From: Potamilus streckersoni | Lineage: Eukaryota | NCBI GenBank assembly: GCA_016746295.1 | Contig: JAEAOA010000900.1 | Coordinates: forward strand, 2,554,807-2,618,806 | Reading direction: 5' to 3' | DNA: 64,000 bases | Part shown: piece after piece, positions 742-24,574 of the stretch | Numbering within the stretch: position 1 is the stretch's first letter | Layout: every line of letters begins with the position of its first letter | The notes under the pieces: model-generated | What the model was told of the DNA's origin: nothing | Database searches by the model: none | What the model saw: the letters and a program-made list of their open reading frames with translations, nothing else | Made by a program: the position numbers and the translations under genes

Positions 742-1058
742 TCAAAAATATATGTGCCTCAAGCAGTGCAAAATGGTCTTGCTGGACCGAAAATGTCTCC
801 AATCTCTGATAAAAAATTCCACCATGAGGGCCATTGACATGGAGAGTGCATGATGTGACATCACTGCAACAGCCTCCAGCAAGTGCTTAAGTGTCATTGG
901 AGATAATATTTCCTCCTTTAAGAGACTGAAGGAGGCTGCCAAAAAGAGATCAGCATGTGAAGTGATTGTCACTAGGGTGCTAGACTTAAGCTCAAAAGTG
1001 TTTAACAGGAGGCAAGCCAAAGCCCCAACCAATATTCTCAATTGAATCTCACCAGATT
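742..1058 (-). CDS. MVP: Putative MVP C-terminal (cap-ring) exon: ...SGEIQLRILVGALACLLLNTFELKSSTLVTITSHADLFLAASFSLL... The ORF continues to a TGA at 742-744.
   Basis: The acceptor is ccactttag|AA, which implies a phase-1 upstream intron. The peptide aligns to human MVP [47 protein letters not shown]. Where the coding sequence really ends is uncertain, because the tail downstream of FSLL is not conserved. Confidence 0.45.
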
Positions 1059-1799
1059 CTAAAGTGGTTGGGGTTTAAGGTTCCAAGCAAGAGAATGAAC
1101 TTGATAGTTAGTGGCAGAGAAAAACTCAGAGCACTGATTAAGCAAGATGCGAAAACCGTTCAAAATTAAAAAGATGAACATCAAAGACAAATAAAGCAAG
1201 GATTAAGAAGATAAAACACACATTCAACACAAACTGTTATGTGAAAGGCCTGAAAGACATCTGAAAACAACATTGAAGGCCAAGTTTAAAAAGTGATGAG
1301 GCAACATCTACTATACAAAGAGCTTACAGTAAAAAGAGGAAGATATTTCATATGTTGGCTGTAATTAAGAAATCAGATAGGGATAAATTTTTTATGTACA
1401 ATTCTGGCCTCCAATACTAAACAGAGGATGGAATAATTGGCTTTGACTGGGGACCATGATTCTGGAAATGAGAAGCAATGGATAAAAGCAGGTATTGTAT
1501 TAATGCTATTAAATTCTTGTTTAAGCTCAATTTATAAATAGTTTACCTACATACTCTCACTCATTTCTGCAAGTAGAGATATATCTTTTTTGTGAAAATC
1601 ATTTTTGAAGTAAAAAATTTAAAGGTTACCAAGACAAATTTCTTGTACTTTATGGCTACAGCTTTAAAATCCCTGAGAACTCTGCTACATATCCTAGGTC
1701 AATATGACTATCTGTTTAGGAAAACTGATTTAATTCGGTGTCTGATAGCATAGCAACACATCTAAATTATTTAGTACCAAGACAATTAGAGCCAAAAAC

Positions 1800-1915
1800 C
1801 TTCCCCAAGAACACACCATAGTAGCTTACCAAGGCAGATCCAATGCTAGGATCTGAACCAACACCCTTTCAATCAGGAATCAGTAATGCTAACCACTAAC
1901 CACTACAAACCCCTC
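1800..1915 (-). mobile_element. tRNA-like SINE fragment.
   Basis: The reverse complement contains gtggttagtggttagcattactgattcctgattgaaagggtgttggttcagatcc, a tRNA-like 3' half with a T-arm. Confidence 0.4.
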
Positions 1916-2564
1916 CCAATCAGAAGGAACAGGATATGCAGACTGTCCACGTTGACCACCATGAGTGTCCAACATCCAATATGGATGTTAAATAGACACA
2001 ATTTTCAATGCAGACGAAAATTACCCCATGCATTCCATGTTTTGTGACTTTCCTGCAGGTAGTTTCAGAGAGATAATAAATAATTGCTAACAGATGCCAG
2101 AGAGAGAGAGAGAGAGAAAGAACAGATACAAGACCATCACAAAGAGCTAAAAATCGCTATCCTGAAGAATTTTCTATTTAACTCTTTCAACCTACTGTGC
2201 CCTTCTGGATATCCTGCACATATATTCCTTCATTCTTGCTAAGAGGAATTTGACTCCTGAAATAAAAAGAATGTACATATAAGATATTACAAATATTTCC
2301 ATAAAAGGTGCTGAGTTAATAAAACAAGGCCACTTCTATTATTTAGTATCAATGATGGTGAGGTTACAACTGCTTTCCATTCATTATCAAGAAGGTCATG
2401 GTTGGCATATATAGCGCATGATCAGTGCATTGCTGAAGGCTAATAAAAACCATAACTAACTGTTGAAAAAAATTATGACACTGCTATTGGCAGAAAAGTG
2501 ACAGCTATGTCTCACAACCCACTAATGTTGGTTTGACAAAAAAATATTAAAACAGTGCCATTTA

Positions 2565-2688
2565 TATATATATATATATATATATATATATATATATATA
2601 TATATATATATAGAGAGAGAGAGAGAGAGAGAGAGAGAGAGAGAGAGACAGAGAGAGAGAGAGACAGAGAGAGAGAGAGAGAGAATGG
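2565..2688. repeat. Compound microsatellite (TA)n(GA)n.
   Basis: Read directly. Confidence 0.95.
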
Positions 2689-22200: not shown

Positions 22201-23934
22201 TTCATTCCACACCAACTGGAAAAGATGTTGCAATGCACATTCATTCACAATATGACTCTAAATTTTAAGTTTAAGTAAACAAAAAACAGCAATTTTTATT
22301 GAAAGTGATGTGAAGCGTGTAACTTAGTTCAAAGTTCGATGTCCTGAGTTATGTGAGCATTAATATTGTTGTTGTGTACTAATAAATCTGCACTTGTATA
22401 TTTATTTTATTTCTTTTAGTGTATTTTTGTTTATGTAATTAAGCCTTAGGTAGGATAAGAAAATGAGTATACAATAAAAAGGTTAATACATTTGTATGCG
22501 AAAATACGAATTTGCTCTGTCAGATGGAAATACTGCACTCCTAAGGTTGTACAGTATCCTCAAAAAACATGTTCATATTTTACTATACAAATGCAGTAAT
22601 CTGTTCAAAGAAAACAAAACCCCAGCCTATTATCTTGAAGGAAAAGAAGAAGATATATTCTAGCTTAAAAGAAAATCCCAGGCTCCTCCCCACAAATAAT
22701 TTATACAGCTGGTACCTAAAATTAAAATTACCTAAAGAACTGATATTAAGAAATATAATGCAGATAAAGCTAATATTTACAACAGAAATTAATAAATCTA
22801 TAATGCATGTGCCTGTGATAATGTTTTAGACTTTCTGAATAAACATTATACAGGTAAGGTATTTACTACAATTTCATTTCTAAATGACTCCACTTTTTGA
22901 GCTGGTAGGGGCCATTGGACATTTTATATTCTTAGAAAAATTCAGGCAGACTCTAATAACAATATATCATCTCCCAATTGTGGAGAGATCACCAATGATG
23001 TGAACTGTTGCAAATATAATCCTGAAAATGACCTACAAAGAAAGGCTAAAAATGCTTGTGATACACACAAAAGGATAGTATGAAAGGCAACAAGTTACTG
23101 TGAAAGAACTGGTTTGATGATATGATGTGCACATTTTAATATAGAAAAGAAACATTTTTTTAATGGTTCATTTTTCTTCATTTTCATGCTAAAAATTAGG
23201 TCATTCACAATCCTAATTCAAAATTAAAACAGACCCAATTTTGCAAATCGACAAAAGTTTGCAAATGGTCTGTCATGATTGTCTACTAAAACACCAACAC
23301 TAAAACATGAAGCCTAGACAGCATGTCTGGAATGGAGCAGATTTCTGTCTTCATGTACAAGTCAATACACTCAATATATACTCATTTATATGTCAGGTCC
23401 AACTGCAAACTGCATAGACTCAGATCTACAGTTGCATGATGTGCCAGAAATTCTGGGTTTATGCAGCTTGTTAGTAGCCAGTAGAACAAACAATAAGATT
23501 CTGATCTACCAGCACACTGTGCAATGGTAGATCAGGGGGTTTTTTTGGTTTGCAGTTGGACCCAACTTATAAGCAAATATATAGGGTACAAATGCAGTCA
23601 GTAACAAAATACAACCAGACTAAATGGTGTATTCATTGCTCCAATTTTAGAAGCATGAATATCTCCAACTTTGATAGCAAAACAATAACCATAAATGTTC
23701 ATTTTCCTCATTTAATGATCTCCATCTTTAGATCCTCATCATTTCTACATATTTAACATATTTTGACTTGATATTTGCTATCCAGGTCCATTGCAATGAG
23801 AAACTATAGTCTAAGTAGCATCAGTGTGTGTTAAGTGTTTAATTTAGATTTTGTCAGTGACCCAAACAATTGGACACTTCATCAGAACCCTGAAAGTAAA
23901 GAAAGAAGACTTTTATAGTTGTTTTTTGACTGAA

Positions 23935-24262
23935 TGAATTGTGTGATGTGTGTGATTTGGATTTTTAACATCGCTTTAACTATTTTTCAGTCATATCACT
24001 ATGATTTCTGTATTGTGGCAGTTTATAGTGATGTCTAGCACTGGGCATCTTGCCGCAGACATGTAGCACGATGTTCCACCAAGTCACATTATCCTGACAC
24101 CAAGCTGACCAGTCCTAACACTTTAATTCTAAGCAATGAGGCAGCTGTTAGTACCATTGTTATAAGTCTTTGGGGTATGACTCGGCCAGGAATCGAACCC
24201 ATTACCTCCCACATCTGGGGCAAACGCTCTAACCACTAGGCCACCAGAGCGGTTCTGAATTA
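23935..24262 (-). mobile_element. tRNA-derived SINE, family 1, about 320 bp. The tRNA-like head is ggcctagtggttagagcg... and the tail is ...aaatcacac.
   Basis: There are four further copies, at 30960-31275, 31300-31465, 57120-57410 and 60200-60490. The head has a tRNA D-arm and T-arm architecture. Confidence 0.8.
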
Positions 24263-24510
24263 ATTGAGTGTACCCCAAGCTAGTTTAATGAATAAAGTGC
24301 AGTCATTGCCAAAGGAACAGATGATGATCAGTTATATTGTGTGACAGAAATGTTTAAGTAATTCTGATTAGCTTGCACAGCAATCAAGAACAAATCGTTG
24401 ATGCAAATAAGATAGAAGGACAGAAGATGAAATCTTCAGCAAAGGAATGTTATCAACCATTAACACAACCAGAAAAGTTAAACCTATTTTAACAGGTAAA
24501 GCCAACCTAC

Positions 24511-24574
24511 CTTATGAAACCTGATTTCTGACTGCCCAAGCTTCTGTTGATATCCTTTTCCTGGAACAAATTTT
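24511..24574 (-). CDS. MVP: Major vault protein exon (repeat 1-2 junction). Peptide (K)FVPGKGYQQKLGQSEIRFHK.
   Basis: The acceptor is ttttctctttcag| and the donor is AAG|gtaggt. The peptide ends ...SEIRFHK and joins in phase 0 to EPFPLYPGE of the next exon. Compare human MVP ...LEIRLAQDPFPLYPGE. Confidence 0.5.

Follow-up and report, generated by a model that had tools for sequence, protein, structure and literature searches.

Twelve exons of a major vault protein-like gene in Potamilus streckersoni, most likely continued beyond the edge of the sequenced window

We analysed a stretch of 64,000 nucleotides from Potamilus streckersoni (assembly GCA_016746295.1, contig JAEAOA010000900.1, positions 2,554,807 to 2,618,806 of the forward strand), which is referred to here as the window. 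Its minus strand carries a gene that belongs to the MVP (major vault protein) family, as an earlier note on this DNA had rightly recognized. Exons were assembled from the six-frame translation and from tblastn searches with MVP fragments, and the splice sites were read base by base. The resulting model contains 12 exons, from 40644 down to 2196, and exon 12 is the last exon within the window. The exons are listed below, together with their identity to P0348, a relative from the unionid freshwater mussel Sinanodonta woodiana.

40591–40644, minus strand: exon 1, from the ATG; MDDIIGIAPLQFVHVLDM, a divergent version of IPPYHYIHVLD; donor GTATGT; ends in phase 0; 94% identity with residues 1–18 of P0348.
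30562–30695, minus strand: exon 2; NTNITRLEVGPQTLVLQSNERLVVGPLPMIVIPPAHYCVVLDPV(T); ends in phase 2; 98% identity with residues 19–63 of P0348.
24511–24574, minus strand: exon 3, called Z1 in the earlier note; KFVPGKGYQQKLGQSEIRFHK; ends in phase 0; 100% identity with residues 64–84 of P0348.
18265–18492, minus strand: exon 4; EPFPLYPGE to MPTPYS; holds the clade-specific insertion NATDFGKKSNNYSPAILK; 91% identical to P0348.
17044–17135, minus strand: exon 5; KIVKIVDPVIIKTGEALVLRAVQDCEDING(E); ends in phase 2; matched by P0348.
15509–15578, minus strand: exon 6; KRVTGEEWLIKEEGAYLAGVNEE; ends in phase 0; 100% identity with residues 191–214 of P0348.
13525–13619, minus strand: exon 7; VVRVEKKHTLTPETGLILKANQTLVDSEGKD(R); ends in phase 2; matched by P0348.
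11716–11782, minus strand: exon 8; LAGEMWLVTGEMMTEYLTEIGV; ends in phase 0; 96% identity with residues 245–267 of P0348.
9183–9327, minus strand: exon 9; EVVSQTKITVLNNHQFCVIMNPVD to FFLHP(G); ends in phase 1; 90% identity with residues 268–316 of P0348.
8007–8123, minus strand: exon 10; EEIEKGIQQAFVLSENEALLLRAIDNHTEEVSSEDKKK(G); ends in phase 1; matched by P0348.
3215–3305, minus strand: exon 11; KIQRKCGERWMILGPTCYIPPIEVEVLKK(R); ends in phase 2; 94% identity with residues 353–384 of P0348.
2196–2256, minus strand: exon 12; (R)SQIPLSKNEGIYVQDIQKGT; acceptor TTTCAG, donor GTAGGT; phase 2 on entry, phase 0 at its end; 100% identity with residues 384–405 of P0348; orthologous stretch in the S. 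woodiana locus (L001) at 38243–38303.
1–2195, minus strand: read as the 5' part of intron 12, with the window ending inside it; no MVP coding match by tblastn.

The coding sequence of the model is 1218 nt long, begins with an ATG and encodes 406 residues without a stop codon or a frameshift. All introns are of the GT...AG type, and the phases agree throughout. The nine exons from 24574 to 3215 (exons 3–11) had already been described with compatible phases; their boundaries are canonical (AG|GT), both end coordinates are exact and the exon ending at 3215 does so in phase 2. The tblastn searches add three pieces, at ~40.6 kb (MDDIIGIAPLQFVHVLD), at ~30.6 kb (NTNITRLEVGPQ...HYCVVLDPV) and at 2258–2193 (RSQIPLSKNEGIYVQDIQKGTV). 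Two of them supply the N-terminal exons that had not been found upstream of 24574. The third is exon 12, located in an interval (1059–3214) that was thought to be free of exons. Its first base completes the phase-2 codon left open by exon 11.

A HMMER scan of 1.84 billion representatives with the window model gives a sponge ‘major vault protein-like’ protein as the top match (52% identity), followed by several bivalve fragments. Full-length relatives were retrieved with an 861-residue chimeric query, made of the window model and the C-terminal sequence of a paralogue. The identities obtained with the chimera are inflated for Corticium and Mytilus-like sequences, and identities were recomputed over the 406 residues of the window. 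The chimeric query returned P0348 (ACJMK2_005775, 852 residues), which is annotated as a hypothetical protein in GCA_046254885.1 (CM100991.1) and bears the UniRef name ‘Major vault protein’. The window model matches it from Met1 to residue 404 with 94% identity (381/406) and two single-residue gaps. This end-to-end match independently validates the 12 exons and their junctions. Residues 3–849 of P0348 align with residues 6–850 of the rat and human MVP chains in solved vaults (E = 7e-235), and Pfam detects the Vault, Vault_2, Vault_3, Vault_4 and MVP_shoulder domains, the last of these (PF11978) at residues 531–646 with E = 1.9e-41. Judged by its sequence, P0348 is a complete, full-length MVP. 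The window gene is the orthologue of this already predicted protein, and as such is ordinary and of a known kind.

The 406-residue model shows the tandem N-terminal vault repeats of the MVP family. Pfam assigns Vault (PF01505, E = 4.8e-55) to four stretches and Vault_2 (PF17794, E = 5e-22) to two, with partial matches below threshold for Vault_3 and for the start of Vault_4 at residues 389–405. Comparison with the MVP chains of the PDB gives E ~1e-60. The window encodes neither the shoulder region, which is present in the 94%-identical P0348, nor the cap helix and the cap-ring segment with its pattern ...TLITDG.SPINLF.TA.GL..., where the alignment of P0348 with the PDB chains extends to chain residue 850.

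We mapped the exons of the S. woodiana gene in an 86.6-kb locus (L001, gene at 5001–81609). On the gene strand the two loci are collinear from window position 43288 (L001 540) to 1442 (L001 38817), at 68–87% nucleotide identity. The collinear region takes in the upstream flank, every exon, most introns and the start of intron 12, and AG and GT are found at the equivalent L001 positions for most of the 12 exons. Over 405 alignable codons the synonymous divergence (dS) is 0.22 and the nonsynonymous divergence (dN) is 0.033, giving dN/dS = 0.15, while nucleotide identity is 93% in exons compared with about 75% in introns. The 12 exons are therefore under purifying selection and not in pseudogene decay. 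Frameshifts, stops, lost splice sites and relaxed constraint, the usual signs of a pseudogene, are all absent from the model.

A further region of similarity lies outside the coding sequence. Approximately 2 kb upstream of the start codon (window 41331–43288, L001 540–2571) are 68% identical between the two mussels. This conserved segment may be a promoter, a 5' untranslated region or another conserved element.

In S. woodiana, exon 12 is located at L001 38241–38306 and exon 13 (VRLVMGPQSYML...) at 40792, ~2.5 kb on. The exons after exon 12 spread over ~43 kb further, to 81606. In the window, 2195 bases remain after exon 12. Positions 1919–1442 can be aligned to intron 12 of S. woodiana, so that about 750 nt at the start of the intron are orthologous. 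From the matching point at L001 38817 it is another 1975 bp to exon 13. With just 1441 bp of window remaining, the window edge falls within intron 12. Since the gene runs toward coordinate 1, ~450 residues are expected beyond it.

We searched for the later exons by tblastn with a word size of 2 and E up to 50–100, using 11 full-length MVPs and then P0348. P0348 recovers all 12 exons at 87–100% identity and none after exon 12. Its residues 406–852 give nothing below E = 1.6 in the whole window; at the left end, its later residues produce only a fragment of E = 52, in another frame, near 821–865. The 11 other proteins yield only noise on the minus strand of 1–2195. The earlier note had offered three readings of the residues it could not place, and none of them is supported. 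That the remaining exons are too divergent to be seen is at odds with a 94%-identical query that finds nothing for residues 406–852. The other two, truncation and assembly error, call for separate consideration.

A truncated MVP paralogue or pseudogene would have kept the N-terminal repeats and lost the shoulder and cap exons by deletion. The lack of any exon past residue 406 within the window is consistent with this, as is the failure of 1–1441 to align with the orthologous intron. The term paralogue is apt, as the gene belongs with the MVP-like group described below. The rest of the proposal fits poorly with a full-length orthologue in a related unionid, with 12 intact exons at a dN/dS of 0.15, and with an exon 12 whose GTAGGT donor is intact and is followed by orthologous intron. 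A further argument against it is that exon 13 of S. woodiana lies 2.5 kb from exon 12, with only 2.2 kb of window left here. We consider truncation highly improbable.

The downstream exons could likewise have been removed or displaced by an assembly error, a collapse or a mis-join, close to the window's left end. The alignment to the S. woodiana intron stops at 1442, the repeat-like sequence past this point has a copy in another of the introns of the S. woodiana gene, and microsatellites are located nearby:

2563–2684, intron 11: (TA)25 and (AG)36 microsatellites.

These microsatellites had been noted before and are real. However, the 1.0–3.3 kb region in which a collapse was suspected is collinear with the orthologue down to 1442: window 3641–1442 follows S. 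woodiana from exon 11 across intron 11 and exon 12 into the first part of intron 12. Elsewhere in the comparison of the two loci, intron alignments, at ~75% identity, also break off frequently, and the missing exons are explained without any mis-join. An assembly error is very unlikely to account for them.

The simplest explanation, which was not among the three readings, is that the window ends inside intron 12. We are highly confident that the gene is the unionid orthologue of a full-length ‘major vault protein-like’ gene that is cut by the window edge, and that the open reading frame (ORF) at 742–1058, formerly taken for its C-terminal exon, does not belong to the gene. By analogy with S. 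woodiana, the gene most likely continues beyond the window. Two points weigh against this reading. The continuation to the left of coordinate 1 lies beyond the sight of the window and is deduced from the orthologue, and positions 1–1441 do not align with S. woodiana intron 12, leaving room for a rearrangement or mis-join there. The sequence of 1–1441 is lineage-specific or repeat sequence, and a lineage-specific insertion is the likeliest origin.

The ORF in question is contained in a repeat:

590–1120, no strand assigned: decayed dispersed repeat; contains ORF 742–1058; 63% identical, with 110 gap columns, to L001 64359–64934.

Within the S. woodiana gene, the L001 copy belongs to a different intron and not to intron 12. 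The gap runs in the alignment are of many different lengths, and a translated comparison (tblastx) shows stop codons in the matched frames. Because of the low identity, the gap columns and these stops, we regard the segment as a decayed dispersed repeat and not as a conserved exon. The full open frame at the left end comprises 110 codons (745–1074). A Pfam scan of this ORF and of the plus-strand ORFs of 586–1042 matched no family, and tblastn with 12 full-length MVPs, including P0348, gave no match to 742–1058 at E up to 50–100. Its Smith-Waterman score to the cap-ring motif proposed in the earlier note is 24, which ranks 28th among 2151 six-frame segments of the window. Shuffled versions of the ORF reach its score to that motif in 148 of 2000 cases, and its score to the true C-terminus of P0348 in 1110 of 2000.

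There is an AG just before 1058, as had been reported, and its use would demand a phase-1 intron. The ends available upstream are of phase 0 (exon 12) and phase 2 (exon 11). With a chance-level score, no Pfam or tblastn match and a misfit in phase, we rejected 742–1058 as the C-terminal exon of MVP. It could instead be a genuine alternative terminal exon, providing a short MVP isoform with a novel tail, and the 110-codon frame with the AG just upstream of 1058 might be read in this way. The GC (guanine and cytosine) content of 1–2000 is also somewhat higher (0.40) than the ~33% of the microsatellite-rich window. Its phase nevertheless fits neither exon 11 nor exon 12, the frame has no Pfam family and resembles MVPs no more than chance allows, and the S. 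woodiana copy of the repeat is gapped, fails to preserve the frame and shows stops in translated comparison. The probability of this alternative is close to negligible. To judge from the sequence, ORF 742–1058 is open by chance within an intronic repeat that has decayed, and the gene does not include it. That the shoulder and cap regions seem to be missing is an artefact of the window cut combined with this one chance ORF.

In the structures of rat vaults, the N-terminal repeat domains form the wall of the barrel, with the shoulder, cap helix and cap ring closing the particle. The window holds the promoter-proximal 38 kb of the gene, with exons 1–12 and 406 codons. These exons cover the vault repeats of the N-terminal part as far as the beginning of Vault_4, corresponding approximately to human residue 400. 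Transcription proceeds toward window coordinate 1, and the window edge cuts intron 12 ~2.2 kb into its length. The last repeats, shoulder, cap helix and cap ring (~450 residues) would be encoded by exons that most likely lie outside the window. By homology, the full protein would oligomerise into a vault shell, with 78 copies as for rat and human MVP, and we see no sign of a different mechanism.

The importance of the gene is small beyond its correct annotation. It illustrates that truncation should not be assigned to a gene merely because it runs toward the edge of a window, and that short motif resemblances in intronic ORFs call for a chance control.

We aligned 40 metazoan MVPs and calculated a neighbour-joining tree from 383 columns, with two non-metazoan outgroups and 200 bootstraps (distance method only). 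The proteins fall in two groups. One is vertebrate-like (PLYPGEVLKQPVTPLKVV), while the other bears an insertion of ~13–19 residues after PLYPGE (..A.DFG...DYS.AIK.LPVV), which in the window gene is the NATDFGKKSNNYSPAILK segment of exon 4 (18492–18265). Each group forms a clade in 200/200 bootstraps, and the window gene pairs with Sinanodonta in 200/200. Its sequence places the window gene in the ‘MVP-like’ clade and not in the vertebrate-type clade. Within our sample, the insertion-bearing clade occurs in sponges, a coral, a brachiopod, an annelid, molluscs, echinoderms and a hemichordate, and most of its members carry the RefSeq name ‘major vault protein-like’. Physella, Mya, Lottia, Babylonia, Pomacea and the hemichordate Glandiceps have members in both clades; sponges also occur in both.

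A 2024 paper states that most eukaryotes have one MVP, with the exception of Dictyostelium (PMC11219742), and a 2013 survey mentions MVP duplications only outside Metazoa (PMC3762200). In the literature searched we found no description of two metazoan MVP clades, which is not proof of novelty, and no experimental work on the ‘MVP-like’ clade. It is possible, though we hold it only tentatively, that the insertion-bearing proteins constitute a second, ancient and faster-evolving metazoan MVP clade, and, if the clades are as old as the tree suggests, that carriers of both might build two kinds of vault or mixed vaults. The situation would then resemble that of trypanosomes and Dictyostelium with their own paralogues. 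This possibility bears on the gene family and not on the residues that the earlier note could not place. Two deeply diverged MVP paralogues kept in many invertebrates, in contrast to the single MVP of PMC11219742, may merit a proper phylogeny.

MVP-related sequences are also found among bacteria. Several cyanobacterial proteins (Moorena and others; P0271–P0274, P0026 and P0045), named ‘colicin uptake protein’ or hypothetical, are 42–44% identical to the window protein over ~400 residues, and are as close to it as vertebrate MVP is. Bacterial MVP homologues were reported earlier in a bioRxiv preprint (10.1101/872010).

The remainder of the window contains one further recognizable gene and a number of repeats. 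Two minus-strand exons of an Arf-family small GTPase (52790–53020 and 54401–54706) are located on the strand of the MVP-like gene, ~12 kb upstream of it. The exons read ...RRVLVLGLDGAGKTKF... and ...VVWVVDSSAAERF...PVIIIASKQ, and the joined peptide matches Pfam Arf (PF00025) with E = 2e-28. Two dispersed families that resemble short interspersed elements (SINEs), each of ~200 bp, occupy introns and flanks:

12913–13120, 18991–19228, 33778–33988 and 48418–48654: SINE-like family A.
24080–24300, 31107–31289, 57235–57410 and 60204–60301: SINE-like family B.

Copies are present in the S. woodiana locus as well. None was detected in 1059–3214, an interval described earlier as filled with SINEs, and a candidate SINE in 1750–2000 has no second copy in the window or L001 and no tRNA called by ARAGORN. 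ARAGORN called no tRNA genes in the window. On the plus strand, a 149-codon open frame at 59557–60003 gives a weak integrase-core (rve) match of E = 0.005, below the Pfam cut-off, and is probably a decayed remnant of a long terminal repeat retrotransposon. At ~51.5–51.9 kb and 56.9–58.0 kb, open frames of long RE/LS and IY repeats point to microsatellites, (GA)n/(TC)n and (TA)n, whose tracts are very long and together span several hundred bases. These tracts yield spurious coiled-coil-like tblastn matches to the MVP cap helix.

The closest known system is the S. woodiana gene, with 94% amino acid identity over the 406 residues and collinear introns and upstream flank. It differs in being from another species (dS 0.22, introns about 70–85% identical), with two one-codon indels, other intron sizes, such as an intron 1 of 4.1 kb compared with 9.9 kb in the window, and an intron 12 without a counterpart of window 1–1441. 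The RefSeq ‘major vault protein-like’ proteins of Mercenaria mercenaria (P0354), Physella acuta (P0362), Mya arenaria (P0391) and Corticium candelabrum (P0121) belong to the same clade and share the insertion, but are more distant orthologues with 51–60% identity over the 406 residues. Vertebrate MVP (rat and human; 4V60, 4HL8, 7PKZ) has the same repeat-domain architecture. However, it is only ~41–44% identical to the window gene, begins with the motif IPPYHYIHVLD where the window gene has IAPLQFVHVLD, and is without the ~13–19-residue insertion that follows PLYPGE, between the second and third repeats, in the clade of the window gene.

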